Positions 964-38,839 of a DNA stretch of 64,000 bases are shown here, piece after piece; position 1 is the stretch's first letter, and each line of letters begins with the position of its first letter. Location: IMG/VR virus record IMGVR_UViG_3300007790_000161, positions 5,809-69,808 of that record. One strand, given 5' to 3'. The position numbers and the translations under genes are program-made. The notes below the pieces were generated by a model that was not told the DNA's origin, did not search any database, and was given only the letters and a program-made list of their open reading frames with translations. This DNA comes from a virus.

Positions 964-1012
964 CACTTAGCGGCCCCTTCGGGGGCCGCAAGCTTTTTCC
1001 TAAGGAGGGAAA

Positions 1013-1195
1013 ATGAGGGAACTGTTTTGGTCTGTATTCGGTTCGCTTGTGGTCGGCGGCGGAATTTGTATTGCTGCTGATTCTATGTGGGACAAGCATT
1101 GGAATTTCTGGCTTGTCTCTGGAATTGTATTTGTTGTGTACTGGCTTCTCCGTCTTGGTTTTGGAGATGATGCACTAGATATTTCATTTGATTAA
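1013..1195 (+). CDS. small membrane protein
   Basis: RBS AGGAGG; two hydrophobic segments. Confidence 0.65.
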   Translation: MRELFWSVFGSLVVGGGICIAADSMWDKHWNFWLVSGIVFVVYWLLRLGFGDDALDISFD

Positions 1196-1234
1196 AAAGT
1201 GGGGCGCAATGCCCCAAGCTTGTAAGGAGGTAAC

Positions 1235-1528
1235 ATGGAAAACATGGCTTTGCCAAAAGCCTTGAGAACAAAGGTTGTTGATGGTCGAGTGTATTTCGAC
1301 CTTGAACAATTGCTTGAGATTATGTATGATGTATGCAATAAGACATCGGTCCTGGCAACACAGCTCATGGACCCTGCCCTAGGCACCATGACGCTAGGCG
1401 TAGCGAACATGTGCAAGGCTCTGGACGACGTTCTAACGGTCCATAAGGCTGCGCATGGGCTGTTGGGTCAGCGTGACTCTGGCAGCGGCTCACAGAGCGA
1501 TTCTAACGGGGTTGCTGAGCAGGACTAA
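1235..1528 (+). CDS. hypothetical protein
   Basis: RBS AAGGAGG; 97-aa ORF with phage-typical codons. Confidence 0.7.
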   Translation: MENMALPKALRTKVVDGRVYFDLEQLLEIMYDVCNKTSVLATQLMDPALGTMTLGVANMCKALDDVLTVHKAAHGLLGQRDSGSGSQSDSNGVAEQD

Positions 1529-1700
1529 ATCTGCTACACTAATTACATGTTCGTTAGGTGATAGGACACCTTTTCTCTTAGGATTCCGGTACCTCTATCA
1601 GTCAGGTCAGGCGAGAGGCTAAGTAACAGTCGGCAGTTATGCCGGAATCCCTTCACAATTAGATATGTAAGAATGTCCAATTAACAGAAGGAGATTAAAG

Positions 1701-1805
1701 ATGCCCGAGGTTTACGATTACGATGATGAGTCGCAGGATGTTTTCGTTGAGTCGGATTCTCCTGTGGACAGTGTTTACATCCGAGATGGACTGACCGATT
1801 TTTAG
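1701..1805 (+). CDS. 34-aa acidic peptide (not in the ORF track)
   Basis: RBS AAGGAG then MPEVYDYDDESQDVFVESDSPVDSVYIRDGLTDF*. Confidence 0.55.
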   Translation: MPEVYDYDDESQDVFVESDSPVDSVYIRDGLTDF

Positions 1806-1815
1806 GAGTTGACTT

Positions 1816-2085
1816 ATGCGCACTGGACTTGAGAACACTAAGCAAGAAACGCTTGAAATCTTGATTACTAACCTTAAGTCCGGTGTGCTTAAGGTTATTG
1901 AAATGGGTCCGGCTGCTTTGGTTTCCGACAATCCAAAGGAATGCCCTCCCGCTGCTGCTTTTGAAACCAACATGATGATTCTTCAAGCCTTTGAGGCAGA
2001 ATGTCTCAAGCGTGGAATCGACTTTGATTCCATTGGTCCTGATATTCGAGAGATTGAGGACCGGTGGCTTGAAGCCCGACAATAA
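1816..2085 (+). CDS. hypothetical protein
   Basis: RBS AGGAG; in operon. Confidence 0.65.
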   Translation: MRTGLENTKQETLEILITNLKSGVLKVIEMGPAALVSDNPKECPPAAAFETNMMILQAFEAECLKRGIDFDSIGPDIREIEDRWLEARQ

Positions 2086-2101
2086 GGAATAGGTAAAGAC
2101 A

Positions 2102-2311
2102 TTGGCAATTGTTCGTATCAGCACTGTACTTAAGAATGCTCCGTCCGTAGGTATTCAGGCTTGTGTTTATGGTGTCGAATGTGAAACCATTGAGTCTAAG
2201 GACCCGGCCGGAATTGTTTTTGAACTGATGGGTTCCAAGGAAAAGATTGCCAACGTCGTTGGCCGTACTGGTTCCCGCATTCTAAGTATTGCTGAGCCTG
2301 TAGGAAAGTGA
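2102..2311 (+). CDS. hypothetical protein
   Basis: TTG start; in operon; followed by a terminator hairpin. Confidence 0.6.
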   Translation: MAIVRISTVLKNAPSVGIQACVYGVECETIESKDPAGIVFELMGSKEKIANVVGRTGSRILSIAEPVGK

Positions 2312-2316
2312 GTCTG

Positions 2317-2340
2317 CCCCGCCATTTTGGCGGGGTTTTC
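2317..2340 (+). terminator. intrinsic terminator
   Basis: CCCCGCC-ATTTT-GGCGGGG followed by TTTTC. Confidence 0.65.
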
Positions 2341-2357
2341 TCGTCTCTGGTAGCTGC

Positions 2358-2387
2358 TTGACAGGGCTACCAAGCTTGCTGTAGAGT
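2358..2387 (+). promoter_or_regulatory. sigma70/HrdB-type promoter
   Basis: TTGACA-N18-TAGAGT. Confidence 0.7.
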
Positions 2388-2412
2388 TCTTACCAGAACG
2401 AAGGGAGACAGA

Positions 2413-3087
2413 GTGTCCAAGGCAACGTATCCTATCAAGCGTCTGATGACCCGTGACAGGGGCATCTGCTGGCTTTGCCGGAAGCTTGTTTCAAGGGAGC
2501 ACGCCACGCGTGACCACGTAATTCCTTATTCTCATGGTGGACCGAACCATGAGGCGAATCTTAAGCTTGCTCATCGGAAGTGCAACGAAAAGCGCGAGAA
2601 CAAGAATTTGATTTCTAAGGCTGAAAGCCTTAAGATTCTGCTGAAGTGCCAAAGCCACCGGTGCTTCCGCTGCCTTGTTGTTCTTCATAGCGATGATGCA
2701 ATGATTTCCCAGGATTGCCCGCGCGGGTCTCTTAGGGAAATTCGGGTGGCTATTTGTAAGTCTGGATGCGAAAAGAAGCTGCTTATTCCTTTTCAGAAGA
2801 GGAAGAGTGAGAAGCGCATCACCAAGAGAATTGAATCTAGGAAGAATAGGATTCCAATGGAAATGATTGTTGCTGATTCCCTGTATGCTGACCAGCTTCA
2901 GGATGGGGATTATGTAAGGTTCTACGCTGAGGGTGCTCTTCGTTTCGGAATTGTCCGAGACGTTGTAGACAATGATGAATTCTTCACCATTACCCTTGAG
3001 GATGATGTTGAGGGAGACGTTCAGGAATACAGCGCTGGTCCCGACACTGTGTATTCTCTTCTTATTCACGAGGCTGTTTCTGTTTAA
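2413..3087 (+). CDS. HNH endonuclease with extra Cys-rich and acidic C-terminal regions
   Basis: RDRGICWLC...TRDHVIPYSHGG.NHEANLKLAHRKCN is a canonical HNH motif. Confidence 0.8.
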   Translation: MSKATYPIKRLMTRDRGICWLCRKLVSREHATRDHVIPYSHGGPNHEANLKLAHRKCNEKRENKNLISKAESLKILLKCQSHRCFRCLVVLHSDDAMISQDCPRGSLREIRVAICKSGCEKKLLIPFQKRKSEKRITKRIESRKNRIPMEMIVADSLYADQLQDGDYVRFYAEGALRFGIVRDVVDNDEFFTITLEDDVEGDVQEYSAGPDTVYSLLIHEAVSV

Positions 3088-3100
3088 TTGAATGGGCGGG

Positions 3101-3130
3101 TTGACAAAACCCGCCCAAGCTTGTTAGTCT
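3101..3130 (+). promoter_or_regulatory. sigma70-type promoter embedded in an inverted repeat
   Basis: TTGACA-N18-TAGTCT. Confidence 0.65.
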
Positions 3131-3174
3131 TCTTTTAAGTGACCCTATTGAAGGGAGAAAACTAGGAGAAGACT

Positions 3175-3561
3175 ATGGAAAAGAAGTGGTATCTAGGAAT
3201 CGCAGCATTTGCGATTGCTCTAGCTACTCTGGTTATTGTAGTGGTGTCTAGTATGGATACTACCCAGAGTAAGTTTGAGGAGTATGAAAGTTACGCTAAG
3301 CAAGTAAACATCGTTGATTGGTCAATTAGCGAGGATACTGCTAAGAGTTTTGCTGAGGCCAATTGTGATAAGCTCGCAACAGGAGAGATGCCAGCAATCA
3401 GATTTCAAAGCACGGACCATGTAAAGTCAAGTGCGTCTGTATTGGCAGCGTATTGCCCCGCCTCATTTGATAATTTTTTGGCGGGTATTATCATGAAGTA
3501 TCCAGAATACAGGAGTACAGCAATGTACCTGAACGAAAGGCTCAAGGTTGGTTCTGATTGA
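3175..3561 (+). CDS. membrane-anchored protein, DUF732-like
   Basis: N-terminal TM helix; Cys pattern ANCDKLATG...LAAYCP. Confidence 0.55.
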   Translation: MEKKWYLGIAAFAIALATLVIVVVSSMDTTQSKFEEYESYAKQVNIVDWSISEDTAKSFAEANCDKLATGEMPAIRFQSTDHVKSSASVLAAYCPASFDNFLAGIIMKYPEYRSTAMYLNERLKVGSD

Positions 3562-3664
3562 GTGGCTGGTAAAGTGCCTGCTCATGGGTGTTGCATGTTG
3601 TGCCGGTGCTGCGCTAGGGTTGTATCTAGGTTTTCTGATGGCAGTGAACGGATGGTTTGGATAA

Positions 3665-3802
3665 ATGGCTAAGAAATACCGAGACCCGGTTGAAGATTTG
3701 TTCAACGAGATTGCGGGCGGATGTGCTTTAATCTTCGCAGCAATCTTTTTCCTACCCTTCGTGGGGCTAGGAATCGGCATCGGATACTGGATTTGGGGCT
3801 GA
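3665..3802 (+). CDS. small membrane protein containing an in-frame TTA codon
   Basis: MAKKYRDPVEDLFNEIAGGCALIFAAIFFLPFVGLGIGIGYWIWG*; TTA at 3728-3730. Confidence 0.55.
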   Translation: MAKKYRDPVEDLFNEIAGGCALIFAAIFFLPFVGLGIGIGYWIWG

Positions 3803-3814
3803 TGCCCTGGGGGG

Positions 3815-3844
3815 TTGACTCTGACCCCCAAGCTTTGCTAAGGT
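3815..3844 (+). promoter_or_regulatory. sigma70-type promoter
   Basis: TTGACT-N18-TAAGGT. Confidence 0.65.
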
Positions 3845-3869
3845 TGTCTCACAACGAAGGGAGACGGAC

Positions 3870-4280
3870 ATGAAGTCCACGGAAGGTTACAAGCTCGCTC
3901 TGTCGAAGCACGCAAAGGAACAGCTCATTAAGAAGACCGGAGAGCTGGGAATTACGCGGGCACAGCAGGCATTCGAAACCCCGGATAAGGTTTATCCGAA
4001 TAAGAAGTACAAGGGTCAGTTCCGGATTGTCGGTAAGGGTCTTTGCCTTATCGGTCGTCCTACTGCCAATGGCCTTTTCCGAGTGTTCACGGTTTACGAG
4101 GATGGTGTTATGACTCCTCCCCGTGAAGACCAGATGGATACAGAGGAAGGCAGGGCGTATGCTGAGCTTTATCGAAAGGCTCAGGTCACTGGGAAGGTCG
4201 CTCGAAACAATGAGTATTACCCGCGCGCAAAGAAGCGCCGTGATGCTCCGAGTGATATACGTCACACGTATATTCGATAA
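3870..4280 (+). CDS. hypothetical protein, DUF4258/RelE-like fold candidate
   Basis: N-terminal LSKHAKEQL and a late VFTVY strand resemble DUF4258. The CDS is secure; the fold is tentative. Confidence 0.5.
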   Translation: MKSTEGYKLALSKHAKEQLIKKTGELGITRAQQAFETPDKVYPNKKYKGQFRIVGKGLCLIGRPTANGLFRVFTVYEDGVMTPPREDQMDTEEGRAYAELYRKAQVTGKVARNNEYYPRAKKRRDAPSDIRHTYIR

Positions 4281-4360
4281 ATAAATATATGGTACCCTGG
4301 TGAAATCCGCCGCCCTCAATTCCGGGGGCGGCGCGTACTAAACTTAGGAGATTTGATTTT

Positions 4361-4846
4361 ATGTATAAGAAGACTGCGGCTATCGGAACGCTTCTTGCTT
4401 CGATGACTCTAGTAGTAGGCATTTCTACAAATGCTGAGGCTGCAACAATCAGAGGTAAGGCGTACAACGTAGCCAAGGCTCAGCTTGGGGACAGATATTG
4501 TGGAGACAATAAGAAGTCCTGTGGTGGAAGCGTCGGACCGAATAGTTTCGATTGCTCTGGTCTTGTACAGTATTCATACAAGAAGGCTGGAAAGACAGTT
4601 CCACGAACAACTCAAAGCCAGTTTAAGGCTTCAAAGGATATTACGGTAAATCAGCGTCAGCTTGGTGATGTGATTTACTTCAGTCACAAGGGCACTCGTG
4701 ACCACTTTCATGTCGGCATCTATGCTGGCAACGGGTATATGATTCATGCGAATGCAGGGTCCTACTACGGAAAGAAGGTAATCAAGGAAAAGATTTCTTC
4801 TTACTGGGGAAAGAACTATAACGCAGATTATCGTAGGCTCGGTTGA
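4361..4846 (+). CDS. secreted NlpC/P60 peptidoglycan hydrolase
   Basis: Signal peptide; motifs FDCSGLV, PRTT..Q and HVGIYAGNGYMIHA. Confidence 0.9.
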   Translation: MYKKTAAIGTLLASMTLVVGISTNAEAATIRGKAYNVAKAQLGDRYCGDNKKSCGGSVGPNSFDCSGLVQYSYKKAGKTVPRTTQSQFKASKDITVNQRQLGDVIYFSHKGTRDHFHVGIYAGNGYMIHANAGSYYGKKVIKEKISSYWGKNYNADYRRLG

Positions 4847-4907
4847 TTGTGGCAGGGTGCCAATTTTGCTTTAAGGCACCCTGCAAGCTTGTAATAAAAG
4901 GAGTAGC

Positions 4908-5081
4908 ATGACAATCAAGTTTGGTGTAGTATTTCTAGCAATTGCAGTATTGCTCACTATATTGTCTATGTGGCATGAATGGCTGTCGGGTGCTTGCGTA
5001 TTCTTCTGGGGATGTGCAGCAGCTTGCATCATCATCGGGAAGGTTCCCGATGGGGTTGACACAGACCAGCCAGTCAGGTAG
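4908..5081 (+). CDS. small membrane protein (57 aa, not in the ORF track)
   Basis: RBS AAGGAG; two hydrophobic stretches. Confidence 0.55.
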   Translation: MTIKFGVVFLAIAVLLTILSMWHEWLSGACVFFWGCAAACIIIGKVPDGVDTDQPVR

Positions 5082-5138
5082 ATTAGTTGTTGTCAGGGCG
5101 GGCCAACAACCCGCTAGCTTCCCACAAAAGGAGAGAAC

Positions 5139-5438
5139 ATGCCGAAGGTTCGTGCGAAGAATGACCGTAGCGGTATTGCTGACCTGGGTGCTCACCACCT
5201 TTACAAGGCTCCGCGATTTCCTGCTCCGCGAATTTCTACGGAGGACTTTTGCCCGGCCTATCACCGACTTCAGCTCGGACTCAAGAACAGTGAGTCGAAT
5301 CTGAAGTTTGCCGGAAAGGCTGTAGTCAAGAAGCAGACTCCGGAAAACATCGAAAAGCTGAAGACTGCTAGGGAGAACATTCGTCAGACCAAGGAGATTA
5401 TCTTTACTCATCTGAGTGAGTGTGAAGACTGTAAGTGA
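5139..5438 (+). CDS. hypothetical protein with C-terminal HxxxCxxC
   Basis: RBS AAGGAG; basic coiled-coil region. Confidence 0.7.
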   Translation: MPKVRAKNDRSGIADLGAHHLYKAPRFPAPRISTEDFCPAYHRLQLGLKNSESNLKFAGKAVVKKQTPENIEKLKTARENIRQTKEIIFTHLSECEDCK

Positions 5439-5487
5439 TGTATTGCCCCCGAAAGGGGGCAAAGCTTCCATAATTAAGGAGAAGGAA

Positions 5488-5670
5488 ATGGAAGACTTTG
5501 GACTGGGAATGTTTCTTGGTGCCATGATTGGTGTCTTTATCTCGACTTTGATTTTCCTCGGAGTGAGTGAGGATATGGAAAGCGATTCCAAGAATGAACA
5601 GAAGCGTTTCGAGTTGTGTCTCAAGCGTGATATGCAGTGGGTTGACCAAAACTGCATCGGCAATAAGTAA
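5488..5670 (+). CDS. small membrane protein
   Basis: RBS-supported ATG at 5488; one TM helix and two Cys. Confidence 0.6.
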   Translation: MEDFGLGMFLGAMIGVFISTLIFLGVSEDMESDSKNEQKRFELCLKRDMQWVDQNCIGNK

Positions 5671-5714
5671 TACCGGGCGGACTTCGGTCCGCCAAGCTTT
5701 CCAACACAAGGAGA

Positions 5715-5903
5715 ATGATGAAGCGACACTTCAGTAATTGGTGGCCGGGATATGTCATGGGAACCTTTCTTGTGGCAATTGTAATTTTTGCGGGAATGGG
5801 AATTACTTATGACGCTAAGCAAGAAAAGCGATGTCTGAAGGCAGGATATCAGTACATCGATGGTACTTGCTTCAAGAAGGCTATTTTTGCTGAATGGGAG
5901 TAG
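5715..5903 (+). CDS. small membrane protein
   Basis: RBS AAGGAG; TM helix plus CLKAG...C, the same architecture as the preceding gene. Confidence 0.6.
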   Translation: MMKRHFSNWWPGYVMGTFLVAIVIFAGMGITYDAKQEKRCLKAGYQYIDGTCFKKAIFAEWE

Positions 5904-5950
5904 CCTTTCTGCCCACGAAAGTGGGCAAGCTTCCTGACATAGGAGATTAT

Positions 5951-6226
5951 ATGAGTATTCATGGCGGGGTTGAGAGAGAAATGACCCTTCTTTCATTCAG
6001 GTGGAAGAAGAACATTGACGAATATGACGGAACACTTGATGAGACATGGCATCTTACCATTGTACTAGGATGGTGGGATATCACAATTGAAAGGATTCCG
6101 AACCGCAAGCACTTCAGCCTGAAGTATGGTATCTGTGGATTCGGATACTGGATTAGCGCCAATAGGAATTTCGAAACGATGGAAAAGCGAACATTCGGAG
6201 ACGCAAGCGAAAGGTTGCTGAAGTGA
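5951..6226 (+). CDS. hypothetical protein
   Basis: RBS AGGAG before ATG 5951. Confidence 0.6.
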   Translation: MSIHGGVEREMTLLSFRWKKNIDEYDGTLDETWHLTIVLGWWDITIERIPNRKHFSLKYGICGFGYWISANRNFETMEKRTFGDASERLLK

Positions 6227-6438
6227 TGGATGACAATGACATGCACCCCGGTTCTTGCCTTCTGTGGCTCATAGCTATAGGGTTGGTCTTGTGGTTGGTA
6301 ATTGATTCGGTGGCAAACTGATGAGCGACGAGAGAAACAGAAAGGTTCTCCTCTGGATGCTTCGCCTAAGCCCAATCGGCGCACTTGCCATGATTGCAAT
6401 GGTAGTGTACGCTATCACTCAACAGTAAAGGAGATAAC

Positions 6439-6618
6439 ATGACAAACGGTGAGCTGATTGAGTATCTGAGCACGTTTCCGAAGGATGCTCAGGTTGATGG
6501 ACTTCTGGTTACTGAGCATGGTAAGATGTTTCCTGTACTTGAGAGCAGCACGCTAGACTCTCAGGATGGAGAGATTTCTTGGGAGCTTTACACTGGTGAA
6601 GAATACGACTGTTCGTAA
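6439..6618 (+). CDS. hypothetical protein (59 aa)
   Basis: RBS AAGGAG; begins MTNGELIEYLSTFPKDAQV, a common phage N-terminal pattern. Confidence 0.6.
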   Translation: MTNGELIEYLSTFPKDAQVDGLLVTEHGKMFPVLESSTLDSQDGEISWELYTGEEYDCS

Positions 6619-6689
6619 TCCAAACCCGCCCGGATTTCCGGGCAAGCTTTCCTTCTAGACTATAAGGGTATAGAAACTAGGAGGATGAA

Positions 6690-6845
6690 ATGAATGTTTG
6701 GGTAGTAACAGAAGGAAATTGCACTTGCTGTAACTGGTATGTTGGCGGGGTTTTCTCAACAGAAGAGAAGGCCAACGCCTATGTATCAAAGAGTGAGTAC
6801 AAGTATTCTGAAATTGACGAAGCAATAATTGACGAAGAGGATTAA
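6690..6845 (+). CDS. hypothetical protein (51 aa)
   Basis: RBS AGGAGG; MNVWVVTEG...GGVFSTEEKANAY. Confidence 0.6.
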   Translation: MNVWVVTEGNCTCCNWYVGGVFSTEEKANAYVSKSEYKYSEIDEAIIDEED

Positions 6846-6846
6846 A

Positions 6847-7416
6847 ATGGCAACGTTCTTCACGAGTGACACGCATTTCGGTCATCAGCGTATCATCGAG
6901 CTGTGCGAGCGGCCTTTCGATTCGGTTGATGAGATGAATGAGGCAATGATTGAGCGCTGGAATGAGACGGTAAAGCAGAGTGACACCGTTTACCATCTTG
7001 GTGATGTGGCACTCGGTAAGATTGCCGAGTCTCTTCCCCTCGTTGGTCGTCTGAATGGTTACAAGATTCTTGTTCCTGGTAACCATGACCGCATTTTCTC
7101 AGGCGAGAAGGAAAAGCAGCGTCTCAGGTTCGGTCCGGAGTACGATAAGGTCTTTCAGTACACGCTCCCTGAGAGCTTCCGTACGACCCTGGGAGGCTTT
7201 GATGTGATGCTGAGCCACTTCCCCTACGTTGGGGACTCTCACGGGGCAGACAGACACGCTGACAAGCGTCCCAAGGATGAGGGTCTGCCTATCATTCACG
7301 GTCACGTGCATGACGAGTGGGCAGAAAACGGCCGGATGTTCAATGCAGGTGTTGACGTTCGAGACTTCCGCCCCGTTCATGAGGATGTGGTGGTTGACTG
7401 GCTCAAGAGCCTGTAG
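6847..7416 (+). CDS. calcineurin-like metallophosphoesterase
   Basis: Motifs SDTHFGH, YHLGD, PGNHD, SHFP and HGHVH. Confidence 0.9.
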   Translation: MATFFTSDTHFGHQRIIELCERPFDSVDEMNEAMIERWNETVKQSDTVYHLGDVALGKIAESLPLVGRLNGYKILVPGNHDRIFSGEKEKQRLRFGPEYDKVFQYTLPESFRTTLGGFDVMLSHFPYVGDSHGADRHADKRPKDEGLPIIHGHVHDEWAENGRMFNAGVDVRDFRPVHEDVVVDWLKSL

Positions 7417-7474
7417 TAAGGTGGGGACTGTTCGAAAGGGGCAGTCCCCAAGCTTCCCTGATTGAGGAGAGACA

Positions 7475-7780
7475 ATGGAATTGTTTCATTTCGTATGGGC
7501 TGATGTAATCGCTCTGGGAATCATTGCAATTGGTTTCTGGCGGGCTTTGTATCGTTGTCCTGTTGGTATGAATCCCGATAGGATAATGTATTGGTACATG
7601 GGATGTGGATGGACCACGCTTGGTGTCATCAGAACATATGAGGGATTTTATGTTTCTGCTGCTATTGATGCTGGGTTCGCCGCATATGACTTCTACCGCT
7701 GGTGGAATGCTGGTGGTGGAGATGGCATCAAGAACTTCCTTCAGAGCCTTGTCATGAAGCCTGCTCATGCTGTAAGGTAG
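7475..7780 (+). CDS. membrane protein
   Basis: RBS GAGGAG; three hydrophobic segments. Confidence 0.65.
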   Translation: MELFHFVWADVIALGIIAIGFWRALYRCPVGMNPDRIMYWYMGCGWTTLGVIRTYEGFYVSAAIDAGFAAYDFYRWWNAGGGDGIKNFLQSLVMKPAHAVR

Positions 7781-7838
7781 TACCACAAGCGGGGGCGAAA
7801 GTCTCCGCAAGCTTCCTCCCTAGACCTTAAGGAGAACG

Positions 7839-8294
7839 ATGGACCTGTTTAACGCAGAACGTCAGGCAAAGCTGCTTATGGCTGCGCATGGATTGATTGA
7901 CAAGGGGTGGCGTTTCGAATGGGATAATGCCGCGCGTCGATTCGGTCAGTGCCGCTATAGCACTAAGACAATTTCAATGTCTCGTCAGTTGACTGTTCAG
8001 CGTAGTGCTGACGCTGTTCGGAATACAATGCTTCACGAAATTGCACATGCGCTTACTCCTGGCAGTGGGCACAATGCGATTTGGCGGGCTAAGGCAATTT
8101 CCATTGGCTGTGATGGAAACCGCTGCTCTGATGATAAGGTTGAGGTTGATTACAAGTATGTAGCAAAGTGCCCGAATGGGCATGTTTCAAAGAAGTACCT
8201 TCGTAAGCCTCGGGCATCTGCTAGGCCCCGCTCTTGTGGTACTTGTAGTCCTGTTTACAATGCAAGATATGCAATTAAGGTGTACGCTATCTAG
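7839..8294 (+). CDS. SprT-like zinc metalloprotease
   Basis: Motifs RFGQC, MLHEIAHAL and GH...W, plus a C-terminal Zn knuckle. Confidence 0.88.
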   Translation: MDLFNAERQAKLLMAAHGLIDKGWRFEWDNAARRFGQCRYSTKTISMSRQLTVQRSADAVRNTMLHEIAHALTPGSGHNAIWRAKAISIGCDGNRCSDDKVEVDYKYVAKCPNGHVSKKYLRKPRASARPRSCGTCSPVYNARYAIKVYAI

Positions 8295-8403
8295 AATGGA
8301 CTGGTTCCCCATTCTGTGAATGGTTCGGGCGGGGAGAAATCCCCGCCAAGCTTGCTACAACAGATGGTACAAGAAACCTCTGTGTGGCTGTGTAGGAGGG
8401 CGT

Positions 8404-8586
8404 ATGAACGTGGCTAGGGAGTTGCGTCGGAAAGAGCATTCTAGGCCCGGACATGAGCTTAGAGACGCTACGGATGACGTATTTAGAAGCAACATGGACA
8501 CTGTGACCAGAAGGTTTCACAGATGTTCGTGCGGGTGGTTTGGATGGTTGACAGTCAAGGCGGAAGGCGGTAAGGTAAAGCCATGA
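8404..8586 (+). CDS. hypothetical protein (His/Cys motif)
   Basis: RBS AGGAGG; GHEL...CSCGW. Confidence 0.6.
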   Translation: MNVARELRRKEHSRPGHELRDATDDVFRSNMDTVTRRFHRCSCGWFGWLTVKAEGGKVKP

Positions 8587-8810
8587 ACGTTGAGGTGAAC
8601 AGCCTGTTCTCCCCACTTTTCTGGAAGTCTGTTGCAAGACGACAGGAGGATGGAGAGCGATATGGTCAGGCAGTATTCAATTCTGCCTATGGATTGTTTC
8701 CAGAAGAAGTTGGTGAGCTAGTTGCAACAGAGCTTGACCCGTTCTACAATGATGGGGTTGTCAAGCTTTTCCTTGCAGCACTGACCAGCAAGATTGGGGA
8801 AGTTCGATGA
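8583..8810 (+). CDS. hypothetical protein
   Basis: Overlapping stop/start; RYGQAVFN...DPFY motif. Confidence 0.65.
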   Translation: MNVEVNSLFSPLFWKSVARRQEDGERYGQAVFNSAYGLFPEEVGELVATELDPFYNDGVVKLFLAALTSKIGEVR

Positions 8811-9172
8811 CCCATTTCAAGGAAGTCTGCAAGTGTGGTAAGGTAATCATGCAATGTAGGTGTCCCGGACAGAAGGAGATTCGCGTGACTGACAAGTGTG
8901 AGCATGACTGGAGTCAGGCTCTTGTGGATGAGTTGGATGAGCAGTACGATGTTCCCGCAAGTGTTGAGGGAAACATCGTAAAGAAGGTTGAGATTGACCT
9001 TCCCGGACGGCACTACCTTGACGTTACGAATCACAACCTCTACGGTTTCATTGTCACGCTGACCATTTGTGACGAGACTGGCGGGGTTATCGCTGAAAAG
9101 GACCTGCTTGTTGGTGTTAAGCAGGAGAATCTTGCCAGTGATGTGGCAGGAATTTACAATTCCTACGAATGA
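8807..9172 (+). CDS. hypothetical protein with N-terminal Cys cluster
   Basis: ATGA overlap; CKCG...CRC. Confidence 0.65.
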   Translation: MTHFKEVCKCGKVIMQCRCPGQKEIRVTDKCEHDWSQALVDELDEQYDVPASVEGNIVKKVEIDLPGRHYLDVTNHNLYGFIVTLTICDETGGVIAEKDLLVGVKQENLASDVAGIYNSYE

Positions 9173-9178
9173 GGGGTA

Positions 9179-9370
9179 ATGGGAATCAAAAAGTGGACAG
9201 ACTTAACTCCATCTGAAAAGATGCAGTGGTTTGACAATTCAATACGAATTCATGAGGACCTTCCTATTCAGAAGAAGCGTAAGATTTGGGCGCGGATTGA
9301 AAAGGAACGTAAGAAGGCTGAGCAAAGAGCCAAGAGGCGTAAGCCTAAGTGGTGGCAGCGTAAAAAGTAA
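9179..9370 (+). CDS. small basic protein
   Basis: RBS GAGGGG; Lys/Arg-rich. Confidence 0.6.
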   Translation: MGIKKWTDLTPSEKMQWFDNSIRIHEDLPIQKKRKIWARIEKERKKAEQRAKRRKPKWWQRKK

Positions 9371-9383
9371 CAAACGGGAGGGG

Positions 9384-9412
9384 TTGACAGACCCCTCCCA
9401 AGCTTGTAAGGT
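9384..9412 (+). promoter_or_regulatory. sigma70-type promoter embedded in an inverted repeat
   Basis: TTGACA-N17-TAAGGT. Confidence 0.72.
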
Positions 9413-9434
9413 AATGACCAACAAAGGAGAAGAA

Positions 9435-9671
9435 ATGTTCGGTCGTAAGAAGTACCGCAAGGGTCGTAAGTATGTGCTTGTCATTGCGGCACTGGACCTT
9501 CGCAATCAAGCTAGGCTGTACACTCTCAGGAAGCGTGTTTGGTTTAGTAAGCATGTTTCCGAGATTGACGCAATGGACATGATGATTGATATGCTGTGTG
9601 AAACTTCAGGTGATGAGACTTTCACCAAGCATGAGGCTATGGTTGTCTTTTACCGTCTTGTTCGAGACTAG
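9435..9671 (+). CDS. hypothetical protein
   Basis: RBS AAGGAG before ATG 9435. Confidence 0.65.
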   Translation: MFGRKKYRKGRKYVLVIAALDLRNQARLYTLRKRVWFSKHVSEIDAMDMMIDMLCETSGDETFTKHEAMVVFYRLVRD

Positions 9672-9727
9672 GACTTGACAGGCAGGCGCAAGTCTGCCAA
9701 GCTTGTAACACAACGAAGGGACAGAAG

Positions 9728-9934
9728 GTGCTTCCATCAGGCCACAAGCCGGTATGCAGGTCATGTTACAATTTCGATTGCGACAATTGTGCTGACAAAA
9801 TTGCAAAGAATACTGAATGGGAAGGGGTATTTCCTAAGTGCGAATGCGGATGCTCGGTAAGCGTGGACAGCCGTTCTGTGGAAGCAAGTGCTGTGGAGAA
9901 AAGCGTGCGAAGAAGAAGCACACGCGCCGAATGA
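9728..9934 (+). CDS. Cys-rich (Zn-finger-like) hypothetical protein
   Basis: CRSC...CDNC...CECGC. Confidence 0.6.
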   Translation: MLPSGHKPVCRSCYNFDCDNCADKIAKNTEWEGVFPKCECGCSVSVDSRSVEASAVEKSVRRRSTRAE

Positions 9935-9986
9935 AGCGTCGGGAGCGTGGTTCCCGAGCGTGGCGTAGCTTCTAGAAAATCGGGGG

Positions 9987-10015
9987 TTGACAGAAAAACC
10001 CTCTAGCTGTAAGGT
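9987..10015 (+). promoter_or_regulatory. sigma70-type promoter driving a non-coding region
   Basis: TTGACA-N17-TAAGGT. Confidence 0.72.
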
Positions 10016-10021
10016 AATACC

Positions 10022-10345
10022 AACGCAAGACGGTGAGGGAAGGCGCACTAAGACTCCCGACTCTCACCAAGCTTTGAAGGGTAGAATTACCTCCGTAATG
10101 AGTCCGTGGGTAAGAGTCCATCACGAGTGGAACGAATGGTAACCTACTGCGGCTAACCTTTCTCTTAGACGCCTGATGACCCCCGGATTACGGCTCTTTG
10201 TTTCTAGAGCTTAGATGACCGTAACATCGGTTGCAAACGATAAAGGGGTGAGGGGTGCGCTATAGTGAAAATGGCAAACACACTCGTAAGAGGGGTTCCG
10301 GTTCGAATCCAGATAGCGTACTGGTGTGGGATACCATAAAATCCC
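10022..10345 (+). ncRNA. candidate structured non-coding RNA
   Basis: About 360 nt without a plausible ORF downstream of a promoter. Several stems: 10032-10068, 10076-10162, 10182-10230, a tRNA-like domain, and 10328-10345. Confidence 0.55.
10256..10321 (+). ncRNA. tRNA-like structure lacking an anticodon loop
   Basis: 7-bp acceptor stem TGCGCTA/TAGCGTA, U8A9, D-arm GTG-AAAATGGCAAA-CAC and T-loop TTCGAAT. A CTC-GTAA-GAG hairpin replaces the anticodon arm. Confidence 0.65.
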
Positions 10346-10386
10346 AATCAATAACCGGCTAATCTGCTTAATTAAGGGAGTTTTAC

Positions 10387-10671
10387 ATGCGCCTCAAGGA
10401 TGTAGACCTTACTGGCTGGACCCTGAACATTGAAAAGCATCCGGGATTTAAGGTGATGGGTCAAAATCTGTATTGGTGTTATGTTACCCCGCCCGGAAAG
10501 GAAAAGCCTCTCGAATTCGTTTCCTTCCAGTTTGGGTTGATGATTAATGACCATCTCAGTCTTTATGCCTGGACTGATAAGGGTGCCGAACGTAAGTTCA
10601 TGAAGAAGGTTCGTAAGATGGTTCGAGACGAAATCGTTGAAGCCGAAAGCAAGAAGACCATTTCCCTCTAA
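10387..10671 (+). CDS. hypothetical protein
   Basis: RBS AAGGGAG. Confidence 0.65.
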   Translation: MRLKDVDLTGWTLNIEKHPGFKVMGQNLYWCYVTPPGKEKPLEFVSFQFGLMINDHLSLYAWTDKGAERKFMKKVRKMVRDEIVEAESKKTISL

Positions 10672-10684
10672 GGAGACTGACAAC

Positions 10685-10864
10685 ATGATGATTCCCGCTC
10701 CCCGAGTCGAGTCGTTCCCGTGCCGTGAGACCGGCTGTGATGGCTTCTACGTGCCTTACAGCGACGGTCTGATGGTTTGCTACGACGGACACGTTTCTAG
10801 CCTCTCTGTGGACGACGTAGACGTTCCGGTCGGTGCGCTTGTTCCTGTCCTGGAAGAGTGCTAA
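10685..10864 (+). CDS. hypothetical protein (Cys motif)
   Basis: RBS AAGGAG; CRETGC...CYDGH. Confidence 0.6.
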   Translation: MMIPAPRVESFPCRETGCDGFYVPYSDGLMVCYDGHVSSLSVDDVDVPVGALVPVLEEC

Positions 10865-10917
10865 GATTCTTCTAGCTGGGGACGAAAGTCTCCAGCAAGC
10901 TTCCCTAAGGAGGGGTT

Positions 10918-11151
10918 ATGCAGTACACTATTACTGAGATTCTGCCCAAGAAGTATATGGAAGACCCTACTGACCTTCAGTTTGTTACTGAGGTTGAGGA
11001 TGAATTCCTTCCGAGAATTGGTGATAATCTCGTATATAACAGTCAAGAATATCGAGTTAAGGACGTTGAACGTAATCTTGACACTCGCACTACTATAGTG
11101 TACGTTAGTGTACCTGAACCCGAGCTTGACTTTGGTTATATCGATTGCTGA
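10918..11151 (+). CDS. hypothetical protein
   Basis: RBS AAGGAGG; FLPRIGD motif. Confidence 0.65.
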   Translation: MQYTITEILPKKYMEDPTDLQFVTEVEDEFLPRIGDNLVYNSQEYRVKDVERNLDTRTTIVYVSVPEPELDFGYIDC

Positions 11152-11207
11152 AATCCGGGCGGGTTTTCCCGCCCAAGCTTCCCAACTATCTAATCAAAGG
11201 AAAAGTC

Positions 11208-11708
11208 ATGGTTGGAAATGAAGAGGAAGCTCGTATCATTGCACTCTGGGAATTCGATGAAGTGGATGAATACGAGTATCAACCCCCCGATGGTTTTGAG
11301 TATATCGGGGAGGGAGCTAGCAGGATTGCATTCCGCAGTCTTGCGACTGGAGTAGTGTATAAGCGACACTACTACTCGGATGATGACACTAACGAATTCG
11401 AATACAAGGCAATTGAGAGAATCAAGAGAATTCCTCTCAAGGGCTGGAGGGTTCCCGACGCTACTCTTTATGTGGTTGAGGAACAGCAAATTATAGCAAT
11501 GGAATTTGTTGAGGGTGGAATGGATGTCCATTGTCAGCGTTCCTACTCATTCTGGAACAAGCCGTGCAATTGTGGTAAGCCTCTGGGAATGTGCAGCGCA
11601 GAAGCGTGGGAGCAGCCTCAAGGAAAGTGGCGGGTTTCAGATTTGCATGTTGGCAATATCGTAATCGATGATAACGGCATCAGGGTCTTGATTGACCTCG
11701 GTGCTTGA
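11208..11708 (+). CDS. protein-kinase-like protein (paralog 1)
   Basis: Gly loop GEGASR, VVYK, helix-C Glu, IAMEFVEG hinge, DLHVGN catalytic loop and IDLG. Confidence 0.82.
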   Translation: MVGNEEEARIIALWEFDEVDEYEYQPPDGFEYIGEGASRIAFRSLATGVVYKRHYYSDDDTNEFEYKAIERIKRIPLKGWRVPDATLYVVEEQQIIAMEFVEGGMDVHCQRSYSFWNKPCNCGKPLGMCSAEAWEQPQGKWRVSDLHVGNIVIDDNGIRVLIDLGA

Positions 11709-11762
11709 CCATCACTGCTCAGTCATGATAGGCTGAGCAAGCTTCGGAACAAAGGAGAAAGA

Positions 11763-11903
11763 ATGCCTAAGCGTCAGATGCCCAAGCCTCGTAACCCTCG
11801 TATGAACAAGACGATGGAGTATCGTAAGGGCTCTGGTGATTTTCCGACAATGAGTAAGCCTCGCTACTCTCGTAAGGTCAAGTACATTCGAAAGGAATCG
11901 TAA
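11763..11903 (+). CDS. small basic peptide (46 aa)
   Basis: RBS AAGGAG; MPKRQMPKPRNPRM... Confidence 0.55.
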   Translation: MPKRQMPKPRNPRMNKTMEYRKGSGDFPTMSKPRYSRKVKYIRKES

Positions 11904-12073
11904 TGGAATCCTGGCGGGCTTTCAGAGATAGCAAGTCTCGTGTAAGATATGTAAGGGAAGTTAAGGAAACGGAAGAGAAGTTTGTTCTTCCGTTGTGGAT
12001 TACAATTCCATTTATCATTGCAATGCTTCCCATTATATTTGTTGAAGTTAGATTTCTCTGGGAGGTTATGTAA
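11903..12073 (+). CDS. small membrane protein
   Basis: TAATG overlap; C-terminal TM helix. Confidence 0.5.
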   Translation: MESWRAFRDSKSRVRYVREVKETEEKFVLPLWITIPFIIAMLPIIFVEVRFLWEVM

Positions 12074-12126
12074 TGAATGGTCACTGCTGGTGTGGTGCTG
12101 AGTATCCTTGCCTCAAGCACTGAGGG

Positions 12127-12155
12127 TTGACACCCTACAGGGGGGTAGGGTAAGG
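12127..12155 (+). promoter_or_regulatory. sigma70-type promoter
   Basis: TTGACA-N17-TAAGGT. Confidence 0.7.
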
Positions 12156-12246
12156 TTGTAGTCACAAGGGCAGGGGGCGGAAACAAACCCTGCCAAGCTA
12201 GGAAGGCCAACGGGTCCTCCGGAAAATATTCTAGGGAGAATGCATT

Positions 12247-12630
12247 ATGCGTAAGCTTCACTTCACTGACCCTGAGCTTAAGAACTTCGCCCTTCGTGGT
12301 ACGCATTCGATTCGCGGAGGTATGGAGCTTCTTCACGTGCACTCTCGTAAGGAGCGATTCGGCTCTTACGCTACTCGAATGGACAGTCTGACTCAGGCTT
12401 ACGAGCTTCCCGCTCACGTGATTCACAAGATGATTACGGGCGGGGATTCGGATAAGACGGAAATGCAGTGGATTTACTTTACGAACAAGTACGGCAAGAT
12501 TCGCCCCACCTATCTCTCTGACTCTGGTGTGATTCCCTACGTCGGCTCTGGTGGTTCGGCTCTCAACGACACGAATTTCCTTCTTGACCTCGGTGCCCTT
12601 CGTAAGTTTGGGATTGAGGTTGACTACTGA
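12247..12630 (+). CDS. hypothetical protein
   Basis: 127-aa ORF with phage codon usage. Confidence 0.7.
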   Translation: MRKLHFTDPELKNFALRGTHSIRGGMELLHVHSRKERFGSYATRMDSLTQAYELPAHVIHKMITGGDSDKTEMQWIYFTNKYGKIRPTYLSDSGVIPYVGSGGSALNDTNFLLDLGALRKFGIEVDY

Positions 12631-12702
12631 GGTAGTCATGGGCTACAGTAGAAGCGTAGCCCAAGCTTGCAACACCCCATCGTAAACCAACACTAAGGAT
12701 GA

Positions 12703-13098
12703 ATGATGAACAAGGGTCTCAAGGTCGCTGGTCTCGCTGTTGCTGGTGTGGTTGCTCTGACTGCCTGTGAGGGTGGTTCGAGTACGGTTCACTACAAGAG
12801 TGGTAAGGCTGGCACTGTTGTCGGAAAGTCTTCCAAGGGTGGTACGTACAAACTGACTACCAAGAGCGGCGGTAAGAAGAAGACGTTTGAGGTTTTCTCC
12901 TCTGTCTACTTTGACTGCGGAATGTACAGCTACTACCCCACTTGTGTCAAGTCGGCAAAGCCGGTTTCCACTCCCACCAAGAATGGCGGTGTGAATGGTA
13001 CTCCCAAGTCTAAGAAGACTTCTGGTACTAAGTCCGACTCTAACAAGAAGAGTGGCGGATTTAAGAGTGGTGGCTTCTCTTCCAGCAAGAAGCGCTAA
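12703..13098 (+). CDS. lipoprotein with Lys/Ser/Gly-rich tail
   Basis: Signal peptide with lipobox LTA-C; low-complexity C-terminus. Confidence 0.7.
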   Translation: MMNKGLKVAGLAVAGVVALTACEGGSSTVHYKSGKAGTVVGKSSKGGTYKLTTKSGGKKKTFEVFSSVYFDCGMYSYYPTCVKSAKPVSTPTKNGGVNGTPKSKKTSGTKSDSNKKSGGFKSGGFSSSKKR

Positions 13099-13155
13099 TA
13101 TCCGGCAAAAATAAAGATTATCGTAAACAGAATAAACTAATAGATAATAAATATC

Positions 13156-13193
13156 TCCCCTCTGGCTTCGGCCAGAGGGGATTTTTGTGTTTT
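13156..13193 (+). terminator. strong intrinsic terminator ending the rightward arm
   Basis: TCCCCTCTGGC-TTCG-GCCAGAGGGGA then TTTTTGTGTTTT. Confidence 0.88.
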
Positions 13194-13210
13194 AATTTCA
13201 AAAAATTCAA

Positions 13211-13290
13211 AAATTTTGTGGCAAAATTTTGAACCATCGTAAAGGGAATTCTGAAATTTTTGTGGCATTTTTTATGACCATCGTAAAGGG
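13211..13290 (+). repeat. imperfect direct repeat with A/T tracts
   Basis: AAATTTT(T)GTGGC-N8-..ACCATCGTAAAGGG at 13211-13246 and 13254-13290. Confidence 0.8.
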
Positions 13291-13708: not shown

Positions 13709-13752
13709 GTTGAACACTCAACAATCAGAGTCTAAGAGGTTGAGTGTTCAAC
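13709..13752. repeat. perfect 14-bp inverted repeat
   Basis: GTTGAACACTCAAC-N16-GTTGAGTGTTCAAC. Confidence 0.9.
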
Positions 13753-14335: not shown

Positions 14336-14340
14336 GAGAA

Positions 14341-21344: not shown

Positions 21345-21349
21345 AATTC

Positions 21350-24655: not shown

Positions 24656-24756
24656 GCAGCCCCGAGAGGCGCAATGCAGGCAGCCGTTAAACTAGTATAA
24701 GCCGTCCGCGAGCTTGGCGGTTCCGAAAAAGGAGAAGGAAAACGAAACCGCCTAAG

Positions 24757-38774: not shown

Positions 38775-38839
38775 TTTGCAGCCCCGGAAACGGGGCAAGC
38801 TGGTTATGAAAATAACATACTGGAGTATATAATTAAAAC

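Follow-up and report, generated by a model that had tools for sequence, protein, structure and literature searches.

A very stable RNA hairpin followed directly by AAGCT(T) closes each of about two dozen small genes in this large Streptomyces phage, and likewise in its subfamily; the element most probably shows where long phage transcripts are cleaved or terminated, with protection of the ends that result. The window, by which we mean the whole 64-kb stretch of DNA analyzed, contains 48 copies of AAGCTT, compared with 23.2 ± 5.2 in shuffled sequences, and 24 of them lie within 1-12.7 kb. The original prediction had proposed comparing observed with expected counts of the hexamer beside hairpins. 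In this region, 19 of the 24 copies stand directly 3′ of a perfect 6-11 bp hairpin, that is, one with Watson-Crick or G·U pairs throughout, whereas only about 0.6 of 24 would be expected by chance because hairpin 3′ ends make up just 2.5% of the positions. One further copy (at 10069) is preceded by a long-loop hairpin, and the remaining four (2482, 2563, 8763, and 12253) are ordinary coding occurrences. Positions 970-12668 thus hold 19-20 perfect GC-rich hairpins with AAGCTT directly 3′ (about 0.6 expected), an association that is real and far beyond chance. Two more elements carry variant hexamers (TAGCTT at 5115 and TAGCTG at 10004), giving a total of 22, in line with the roughly 22 predicted, and the examples quoted at 970, 5911, and 9681 were exact. 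The elements, together with related features, are as follows (window coordinates; RBS, ribosome-binding site).

970..995, plus: 8-bp hairpin, UUCG loop, AAGCTT; RBS directly next; no-promoter class
1201..1221, plus: 6-bp hairpin, AAGCTT, then RBS
2349..2377, plus: promoter class; TTGACA in loop, AAGCTT in promoter spacer, TAGAGT 4 nt on; just past the 2316-2336 terminator
3094..3122, plus: promoter class; loop TTGACA, hexamer, then TAGTCT
3810..3835, plus: promoter class; loop TTGACT, hexamer, then TAAGGT
4852..4890, plus: 10-bp hairpin, 13-nt loop, AAGCTT, then RBS
5097..5120, plus: variant, hairpin and TAGCTT; a promoter at 5056 would initiate just upstream
5444..5467, plus: GAAA-loop hairpin, AAGCTT, then RBS
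5676..5699, plus: UUCG-loop hairpin, AAGCTT, then RBS
5911..5932, plus: GAAA-loop hairpin, AAGCTT, then RBS; cassette joint in SparkleGoddess and Moab
6628..6649, plus: hairpin and AAGCTT
7423..7455, plus: 11-bp hairpin and AAGCTT; several compensatory changes in relatives
7789..7814, plus: hairpin with two G·U pairs, GAAA loop, AAGCTT; folds only as plus-strand RNA
8328..8353, plus: hairpin and AAGCTT; from the hexamer on, Moab, Francob, and Gilson have a different downstream sequence
9376..9405, plus: promoter class; loop TTGACA, hexamer, then TAAGGT; stem pairs swapped in relatives
9681..9704, plus: GCAA-loop hairpin and AAGCTT
9982..10009, plus: variant; loop TTGACA, hairpin and TAGCTG, then TAAGGT
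10032..10074, plus: long-loop hairpin (GGTGAG/CTCACC) and AAGCTT, within an ORF-free stretch
10875..10902, plus: hairpin and AAGCTT; stem wholly replaced and hexamer kept in Francob, Gilson, SparkleGoddess, and Annadreamy
11157..11180, plus: hairpin and AAGCTT; exact insertion point of an extra gene cassette in Kenrey
11717..11744, plus: hairpin and AAGCTT; promoter -10 (TAGGCT) within hairpin
12640..12668, plus: hairpin and AAGCTT; promoter TTGACT-18-TACAGT ends within hairpin
24710..24752, minus: variant between two tRNA-Thr genes, hairpin (17-nt loop) and AAGCTC
38781..38802, plus: lone late-region copy, GAAA-loop hairpin and AAGCTG
13156..13191, plus: for contrast, canonical hairpin and T-tract terminator closing the arm

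In nearly all cases the hairpin starts 5-10 nt past a stop codon, matching the predicted distance of a few nucleotides, and where no promoter intervenes the end of the hexamer lies 10-29 nt upstream of the next start codon. The claim that nearly every transcription module begins with the motif is better recast as most small genes ending with it. The elements are strand-specific and absent from the structural genes and the rrn-like early block. The two outlying copies had been described as copies of the motif; both hairpins are present, but the minus-strand copy at tRNA-Thr (24752-24710) reads AAGCTC and the late copy AAGCTG.

We found the element conserved in three Loccivirinae genera, Gilsonvirus, Annadreamyvirus, and Wakandavirus, and did not find it in Samistivirus Jay2Jay or Rhodococcus phage Trina. 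A covariance model, an approach suggested at the outset and built here from 15 copies, gave about 116 plus-strand matches in Loccivirinae DNA against about 8 weak ones on the minus strand, and one weak match in Jay2Jay. Comparison of orthologous copies showed 49 base pairs with both partners changed and 51 with a single partner changed, pairing being kept, and at some orthologous sites whole stems were swapped out at the same position. The hexamer was exact in 102 of 115 orthologous cases, whereas its flanks differ by 20-26%. Strong hairpins were followed by exact AAGCTT in 150 instances and by a hexamer differing only at position 6 in 27; about 12 showed a change elsewhere, mostly noise. AAGCT is therefore fixed across relatives and the sixth base alone varies, which agrees with the prediction that stems differ while structure and hexamer are kept.

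The 158 distinct elements contain 97 G·U pairs, and their summed stem length is 1288 by plus-strand pairing rules compared with 790 by minus-strand rules. Among their loops, GAAA occurs 22 times, UUCG 16, GCAA 7, and GAGA 7. The G·U pairs and the UUCG and GNRA loops identify plus-strand RNA as the folding molecule, computed folds agree with plus-strand pairing, and from these sequence patterns we conclude that structure is under selection on the transcribed strand. G·U pairs and UUCG loops, pointing to RNA and not duplex DNA, also make it quite improbable that the element acts primarily as DNA, either as a cassette-exchange recombination joint (PeSL-like or integron-attC-like) or as the operator of a dimeric DNA-binding protein. 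AAGCTT is palindromic (a 1 in 64 chance), a property that an RNA cut site leaves unexplained, and several cassette joints fall at the element. Kenrey carries an extra 409 bp (one gene with its own hairpin) between two AAGCTT-CCC repeats, SparkleGoddess lacks the gene at window positions 5715-5900 and is joined at the hexamer, and Moab fuses the 8348-type hairpin to the gene downstream of 5927. Alignment break points fell between -3 and +9 of the hexamer in 16 of 243 cases, compared with 1.9% expected. This enrichment is modest, however, intergenic DNA aligns poorly anyway, and microhomology would be expected to place break points at any intergenic word that recurs. Moreover, homologous recombination needs more than six bases, the Kenrey annotation includes no integrase, and the flanks are asymmetric, with C before the hexamer in 93% of copies and G after it in only 33%.

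About ten of the elements overlap a consensus sigma-70-type promoter. Promoter-class copies have their -35 within the stem-loop and the hexamer inside the spacer, with the -10 following after 1-4 nt; more than half of the copies are promoter-free. TTGACA-N17/18-TAnnnT promoters overlap elements in at least four different registers, so that the hexamer falls in the spacer, 3′ of the -10, or over the -35, which indicates that it is placed relative to the hairpin and not to the promoter. These varying registers bear on the proposal that the hexamer, or CAAGCT as a -10, is a core promoter element of a phage-modified RNA polymerase. AAGCTT does share the A at position 2 and the T at position 6 of -10 hexamers, and TTGACA lies 18 nt upstream of the hexamer at 9699. 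In at least 11 elements, however, the hexamer lies 10-29 nt from the start codon with the RBS between, and a start about 7 nt past it would remove or truncate that RBS; the annotation lists neither a phage RNA polymerase nor a sigma factor. Given the start-codon and RBS distances and the overlapping promoter registers, we rejected this highly improbable reading.

Genes with no consensus promoter between them are set apart by three or four elements in succession (5115 to 5927), and the elements must therefore let RNA polymerase through. The original prediction was right that they lack a U-tract, yet the phage also has canonical hairpin and T-tract terminators in the same arm, at 2316-2336 and 13156-13191. 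These serve where a full stop is needed, which sets the AAGCUU elements apart as a separate class. The element at 2349-2377 is conserved despite the strong terminator 12 nt upstream, which speaks against its being a cut site.

The best reading, which we hold tentatively, is an endonuclease cut site beside a protective hairpin. It fits best with the serial elements between genes without promoters of their own and with the transcribed-strand fold. Of the three mechanisms originally offered, which were partly supported, an endoribonuclease site fits best, and CAAGCT as a -10 is not supported. Host RNA polymerase would start long transcripts at the dense sigma-70-type promoters of the arm, and, once transcribed, a very stable hairpin would form a few bases past each stop codon. 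An endoribonuclease would then cut the single-stranded AAGCUU at the 3′ base of the hairpin, the bond between G and C being the likeliest target. The message upstream would keep its hairpin and about 3 nt, too little foothold for 3′ exonucleases, and the downstream message would begin just ahead of its own RBS. The element would thus act as an RNA-level full stop of the upstream gene, and in the roughly ten copies where the hairpin is fused with a promoter, one short spacer would end one message and start the next. Because the hairpin lies 5-10 nt past the stop codon, a terminating ribosome would hinder co-transcriptional folding, which may favor a post-transcriptional role.

Mycobacterial RNase E cuts RR↓CNU or RN↓CNU in single-stranded RNA, and intergenic regions and 5′ UTRs hold more than their share of its sites (PMC10641625). 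AAG↓CUU satisfies RR↓CNU at every position, which makes host RNase E a candidate enzyme on the actinobacterial preference, although the rule comes from mycobacteria and not from Streptomyces. Against it, the rule holds about 6 bits, but AAGCU hardly varies: the rule leaves +2 open where the element has a fixed U, and it prefers U at +3, the one position that is variable here. Since the motif is absent in Trina and in Jay2Jay, a sister phage with the same hosts, a host enzyme alone would be insufficient. That A1 and U5 hardly vary, and that the element is confined to one subfamily, points to added specificity, which a phage-encoded factor might supply.

Five fixed bases beside a structure of free sequence, confined to one subfamily, would also be a typical protein-recognition signature. 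The element could accordingly bind a phage-encoded RNA-binding regulator reading "hairpin + AAGCU", such as a global translational repressor of early or middle genes (T4 RegA being an example) or a dedicated endonuclease (as T4 RegB is), at a site lying inside the 30S footprint of the next gene. Among no-promoter copies, the hexamer indeed ends only 10-29 nt from the start codon, and the C-rich spacer pairs weakly with the Shine-Dalgarno (probability 0.47 vs. 0.39 in shuffled leaders, p = 6e-6), although this sequestration effect is small. We consider such a regulator unlikely: the hexamer is kept in promoter-class copies even though transcripts from their own promoter would lack it, and no nuclease or RNA-binding domain was found in 20 ORFs of the arm and early block, a negative that also tells against the cleavage reading.

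The main rival to cleavage, possible but less probable, is a non-canonical leaky terminator or attenuator, in which hairpin and AAGCUU would halt a fraction of RNA polymerases. Help would probably come from host NusG, NusA, Rho, or a phage-encoded factor, which would recognize the hexamer in RNA or in non-template DNA; the lineage restriction fits a phage-encoded factor, but no candidate was found among the 20 ORFs. The hexamer would replace the U-tract, whose position it occupies, and promoter-class geometry is that of promoter-coupled terminators (10.64898/2026.08.19.745784) and T4 PeSLs (PMC2839356). After the thioredoxin and rIIB-like genes, Kenrey has a hairpin with AAGCTT where Jay2Jay has a hairpin with TTTGCCGT or TTCGTCGTCT. 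In Streptomyces Term-seq, 353 of 535 structured 3′ ends had no U-tract and showed more read-through (PMC8269248), and phiC31 early-region terminators are cited as lacking a poly-U tail (Ingham 1995, cited in PMC3993855). However, RNA polymerase purified from mycobacteria needs a U-tract to terminate, whether or not NusA and NusG are present, and earlier reports of U-tract-free termination may reflect nuclease contamination (PMC3993855). The three stem-adjacent bases, which weigh most in intrinsic termination, are AAG here; serial promoter-free elements would starve distal genes unless each were weak; and the hairpin lies so near the stop codon that ribosomes should hinder its folding.

Within the literature searched, we found no published description of a hairpin and AAGCTT signal, and the signal is apparently undescribed, as originally proposed. 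Among phages, intercistronic processing has precedents in T4 gene 32 and in the early RNase III sites of T7. Tuerk and colleagues reportedly described, in 1988, C(UUCG)G hairpins in T4 intercistronic regions; these are likewise extra-stable tetraloop hairpins between phage cistrons, but carry no attached conserved hexamer.

Intercistronic processing by RNase E next to stem-loops, with its actinobacterial motif RR↓CNU (Zhou 2023, PMC10641625), shares an intergenic single-stranded site that fits the sequence preference exactly, an adjoining stable hairpin, and, as proposed for this phage, a polycistronic message cut into hairpin-protected pieces. Known RNase E sites, however, are degenerate, whereas the AAGCTT hexamer is fixed within one phage subfamily and its cleavage is predicted. 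The phiC31 early poly-U-less terminators (Ingham, Hunter & Smith 1995, as cited in PMC3993855) are U-tract-free hairpins at RNA 3′ ends in a Streptomyces phage, and the "HS-U-lack" ends of Streptomyces Term-seq (PMC8269248) are their counterparts in host RNA; in the accounts consulted, neither is reported with a conserved post-stem word, and the mechanism of poly-U-less terminators is itself disputed (PMC3993855). Canonical intrinsic terminators and those coupled to promoters (Fletcher et al. 2026 preprint, 10.64898/2026.08.19.745784), which Jay2Jay has at orthologous sites, also place a GC-rich hairpin just past the gene, the coupled ones with the -35 in stem-loop DNA and the -10 just beyond the tail. 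The AAGCTT elements differ in their AAGCU(U) tail, with AAG next to the stem and no U-tract, and in standing serially inside apparent operons alongside true U-tract terminators in the same arm. The promoter-early stem-loops (PeSLs) of T4-like phages (Arbiol 2010, PMC2839356; Comeau 2014, PMC4122927) share about 100 bp of common sequence (promoter, AT-rich region, and stem) and lack a fixed hexamer directly 3′ of the stem, whereas only 5-6 nt are fixed here, stems are free, more than half of the elements are promoter-free, and the host and phage lineages are unrelated. Like the AAGCTT elements, however, PeSLs are small terminator/promoter composites between accessory ORFs, with a GC-rich stem-loop in several registers to a sigma-70-type promoter, the RBS of the next gene downstream, and gene insertions and deletions among relatives joined within the motif.

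The window derives from a lytic Streptomyces siphovirus in Gilsonvirus, a genus of the Loccivirinae (Stanwilliamsviridae), whose relatives have SEA-PHAGES-type genomes of about 129 kb. Window positions 1-13000 correspond to 107.6-121.6 kb of the relative Kenrey at 95% identity. The 72-kb contig spans the genome ends at about window 22 kb, and the elements, GC-rich RNA hairpins directly adjoined by AAGCTT (AAGCUU in RNA), therefore sit in the right-hand arm of the genome, among small plus-strand genes, most of them unknown. The first two and last two genes of Kenrey (1-2 and 273-274; window ~21000-22500) are identical in length and spacing, which suggests a short direct terminal repeat crossed once by the contig. 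The large gene directly before the first element (70-960) encodes a DUF932 protein (E = 9e-43) that is annotated as hypothetical in the relatives. At ~13100-14340, between a terminator at 13156 and the early block (14.3-22 kb), none of Kenrey, MeganTheeKilla, Gilson and Francob has an annotated gene over a stretch of ~1.2-1.8 kb.

We examined whether hairpin and hexamer are associated beyond chance. The window contains 48 copies of AAGCTT, compared with an expectation of 23 ± 5, and the first 12.7 kb accounts for half of them. Nineteen of these 24 come immediately after a perfect GC-rich hairpin and another immediately after a hairpin with a long loop; the remaining four are ordinary coding occurrences. 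Comparable hairpin 3' ends occupy 2.5% of arm positions, so that only ~0.6 coincidences would be expected against the 19-20 observed, and AAGCTT is by far the commonest word after strong hairpins in the arm. The original prediction of about 22 elements was borne out by these 20 together with two variants:

5115: variant element, hairpin-adjacent TAGCTT
10004: variant element, hairpin-adjacent TAGCTG

Three further copies lie directly upstream of the window on the same contig. Two outlying copies had also been proposed to carry AAGCTT. Both hairpins exist, the minus-strand one between two tRNA-Thr genes and a single one in the late region, but they end in AAGCTC and AAGCTG, respectively. The claimed lack of a U-tract held as well: the tail is AAGCU(U), and only one of the 22 elements (at 990) passes a T-tract scan.

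The elements share a fixed order of stop codon, 5-10 nt, hairpin and AAGCU(U). Their stems are 6-11 bp long and consist mainly of G-C pairs; four of five tested had z-scores between -2.5 and -3.6. Their loops are very often GAAA, UUCG, GCAA or GAGA. In the 5' flanks of the hairpins (e.g., 5436-5443, 5668-5675 and 7414-7421), many upstream genes were seen by eye to end in overlapping two-frame stops (TAAGTGA, TAAGTAA or TAGTAA). Canonical terminators end transcription units at 2316 and 13156.

We next compared the element across the Loccivirinae. MeganTheeKilla, Gilson, Francob and SparkleGoddess each carry 21-24 copies per arm, Annadreamy carries 28 plus four AAGCTG, and Wakanda, which represents a third genus, has about 35, AAGCTA and AAGCTC among them. 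In orthologous alignments the exact hexamer was retained in 102 of 115 cases, with most of the others being one-base alignment shifts, while the flanks diverged by 20-26%. Orthologous stems showed 49 double and 51 single pair-preserving changes, and at several sites (5927, 10897, 11175 and 12663) the stem was wholly exchanged with AAGCTT kept. The conservation and compensatory change anticipated in relatives are thus present. When strong hairpins were collected without preselecting the word, exact AAGCTT followed 150 of them, variants at position 6 followed 27, and variants at positions 1-5 followed ~12 (mostly noise). These counts indicate a signal made up of a stable hairpin of any kind with C as its last base, followed by AAGCU and, in most cases, U. 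With a covariance model built from 15 copies we obtained ~116 plus-strand matches in Loccivirinae DNA, a handful of weak minus-strand ones and, in the Samistivirus phage Jay2Jay, a single weak match. Among the 15 paralogues all seven stem pairs show changes on both sides, a count that is circular since the copies were picked as hairpins; the case for covariation rests instead on the orthologue comparison and the adjacency statistics.

Jay2Jay belongs to the same family and to the sister subfamily Boydwoodruffvirinae. Across 45 kb of its equivalent arm we found no hairpin + AAGCTT motif; its arm hairpins have T-rich tails followed by TTGACA promoters. Downstream of the thioredoxin and rIIB-like genes, at two orthologous gene ends, a hairpin + AAGCTT in Kenrey corresponds to a hairpin + TTTGCCGT or TTCGTCGTCT in Jay2Jay. 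The motif was likewise not found in Rhodococcus phage Trina, and the early block of the window (14.3-22 kb) contains no element. In the right-end minus-strand gene block of Jay2Jay (~36800-43700, minus strand), TTTGGCCG(C/T)CCCGGACA comes after a UUCG-loop hairpin at least six times. This is a different, lineage-specific post-hairpin word, perhaps a terminator combined with a phage-specific promoter.

To determine which molecule is under selection, we analyzed the strand dependence of the element. Kenrey as a whole has 35 plus-strand and two minus-strand occurrences of a hairpin followed by AAGCTT, all within 47.5-121.2 kb and none in the structural genes. The 158 distinct elements from eight Loccivirinae sequences contain 97 G·U pairs, and their summed stem pairs amount to 1288 under plus-strand rules vs. 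790 under minus-strand rules. The element at 7789-7814 forms an intact hairpin as plus-strand RNA, but its complement does not fold so. C(UUCG)G and GNRA loops are RNA-stabilizing motifs. Taken together, the G·U pairs, the strand-biased stems, the fold at 7789-7814 and the RNA-type loops indicate that the plus-strand transcript is the selected object. Three other candidates were set aside: a replication-priming signal, because the motif is absent from co-oriented structural genes and UUCG loops indicate RNA; an extended DNA palindrome, because the flanks of the hexamer are asymmetric; and pairing of AAGCUU with upstream sequence to lengthen the stem, because no complementary signal lies upstream.

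These RNA signatures also weigh against a primary DNA-level role as a gene-cassette joint, which we consider a lesser alternative. Joints of gene gain and loss do coincide precisely with the hexamer. Together with a hairpin of its own, Kenrey gene 257 forms an extra small cassette between two AAGCTT|CCC repeats (window 11175-11180 vs. Kenrey 119508-119922), a clean single-cassette indel, and a deletion in SparkleGoddess and a reassortment in Moab are joined at hexamers (sites 5927 and 8348). Alignment break points are enriched 3.7-fold at hexamers, a modest effect; such break points are, however, an expected by-product of any repeated intergenic word.

The relation of the hexamer to promoters was then considered. 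About 10 copies overlap a consensus Streptomyces-type promoter. Within 1-13.4 kb, the pattern TTGAC(A/C/T)-N16-18-TAnnnT has 12 plus-strand occurrences (0.46 ± 0.64 in shuffles) and a single minus-strand one, and 10 of the 12 plus-strand sites lie no more than 60 nt from an element, the stem-loop/promoter overlap that characterizes the promoter-early stem-loops (PeSLs) of T4-like phages. A generic promoter scan was not enriched (17 vs. 13.1) because it requires TATAAT likeness. Consensus promoters are very densely spaced along the window 1-13400 plus strand, at about one per 1.1 kb. Their register relative to the element varies: the -35 lies in the hairpin loop and the hexamer in the spacer at 2372, 3117, 3830, 9400 and 10004; the -10 lies within the hairpin at 11739 and 12663; the entire promoter is upstream at 5115 and 7450; and in Kenrey and Wakanda the two overlap as AAGC-TTGACA. 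This variation indicates that the hexamer is bound to the hairpin rather than to the promoter. The earlier suggestion that CAAGCT serves as a -10 element is excluded, as the hexamer follows the hairpin while promoter registers vary, and the hexamer as a promoter was rejected on geometry.

In the ~12 copies without a promoter, a C-rich, G-poor spacer of ~10 nt directly joins the hexamer to the ribosome-binding site, and the start codon 10-29 nt past the hexamer leaves no space for one. Spacers past the hexamers (e.g., 996-1012, 7456-7474 and 10903-10917) are C-rich and G-poor and often contain CUUCCC. Pairing between spacer and Shine-Dalgarno sequence is predicted to be weak, with a probability of 0.47 vs. 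0.39 in shuffled leaders (n = 122, p = 6e-6). Weak sequestration of the Shine-Dalgarno sequence by the CUUCCC spacer, as predicted, would suit another lesser alternative, in which a phage RNA-binding regulator recognizes the element.

Three constraints bear on function. The element acts on upstream-derived RNA, given its link to the upstream stop codon and its retention even where a promoter of its own serves the next gene; most polymerases must pass it, because runs of three or four elements part genes without consensus promoters; and sequence is read as well as shape, because five bases are fixed. All three agree with cleavage by an endonuclease next to a protective hairpin, and we tentatively favor endonucleolytic processing as the function of the element. 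AAG|CUU conforms fully to RR|CNU, with U at +3 in 83-85% of copies. RR|CNU is preferred by mycobacterial RNase E both in vivo and in vitro, with sites enriched between genes (PMC10641625); the rule is mycobacterial, and Streptomyces specificity may differ. In predicted folds the hexamer is unpaired in three of five cases and otherwise partly paired with its flanks or the Shine-Dalgarno region. A cut within AAG|CUU would leave the hairpin with a 3-nt tail. Terminating ribosomes would be expected to hinder co-transcriptional folding, given the short distance from stop codon to hairpin, and we infer that this hindrance favors a post-transcriptional role.

Host RNase E is a candidate for the processing enzyme, and a phage protein may guide it or take its place. 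A simple host-RNase E account is opposed by three observations: the motif is far stricter than RR|CNU, its sole variable position is one that RR|CNU prefers, and sister phages on the same hosts do not have the motif. In 20 ORFs taken from the arm and early block, a Pfam scan detected DUF932 and NlpC/P60 only, with no nuclease or RNA-binding domain, and the annotation of Kenrey lists no RNA polymerase, sigma factor or endoribonuclease. A broader proposal, which we regard as unlikely, is a private RNA punctuation code of the Loccivirinae, in which a dedicated phage-encoded factor reads the stable hairpin + AAGCU, the element has taken the place of U-tract terminators at the ends of dozens of genes, and the same joints are break-and-join points for cassettes. 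The putative factor would be an endoribonuclease or a termination/antitermination protein.

The main rival to processing is a leaky, factor-assisted terminator, which appears somewhat doubtful. The hexamer occupies the position of the U-tract in promoter-coupled terminators (composite terminator/promoters), in T4 PeSLs and at the orthologous Jay2Jay sites. Many structured 3' ends in Streptomyces have no U-tract (PMC8269248), and terminators without poly-U have been reported for phiC31, as far as the citing text in PMC3993855 goes. On the other hand, pure mycobacterial polymerase requires a U-tract with or without NusA and NusG (PMC3993855), and the stem-proximal bases here are AAG.

Transcript ends and processing in actinobacteria are unsettled, as most structured 3' ends have no U-tract, yet purified polymerase requires one. 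With over 20 copies within 12 kb, and over 200 among its relatives, the phage provides a compact natural test set, in which one exact word follows hairpins of free sequence and neighboring canonical terminators serve as internal controls. Should the element prove to be a cut-and-protect signal, it would offer a portable means of insulating and stabilizing genes in Streptomyces operons; should a phage factor read it, the factor would be a new RNA enzyme with sequence specificity or a new termination protein. For accessory-gene shuffling in large lytic actinophages, the cassette joints are relevant as well.

The motif had been proposed as undescribed, and in agreement with this we found no description of it in the searchable literature on Stanwilliamsviridae, cluster BK, Annadreamy and actinobacteriophage stem-loops; Rfam matched only tRNAs in window 1-26000 (E ≤ 0.1), with no family for the element. 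Unlike in REP/REPIN sequences, MITEs and other interspersed palindromic repeats, whose copies have the palindrome's sequence in common, its stems vary freely, and no direct-repeat family was seen. Its hairpins are short and perfect, whereas integron attC sites are long and imperfect with extrahelical bases and are used by a tyrosine recombinase (IntI); no integrase is annotated in Kenrey. By analogy, the elements may work like intercistronic hairpins, PeSLs or terminators. They share with canonical intrinsic terminators a GC-rich hairpin in nascent RNA but do not have the U-tract (at least three U) directly after the stem. With PeSLs and promoter-coupled terminators they share a stem-loop that overlaps a sigma-70-type promoter between accessory ORFs, except in the ~12 elements without such a promoter. 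The ~100 bp of shared sequence that serves homologous recombination in PeSLs is absent here, the hexamer alone being invariant among paralogues; as with PeSLs, however, indel joints between related phages lie in the motif, explicitly in three cases.
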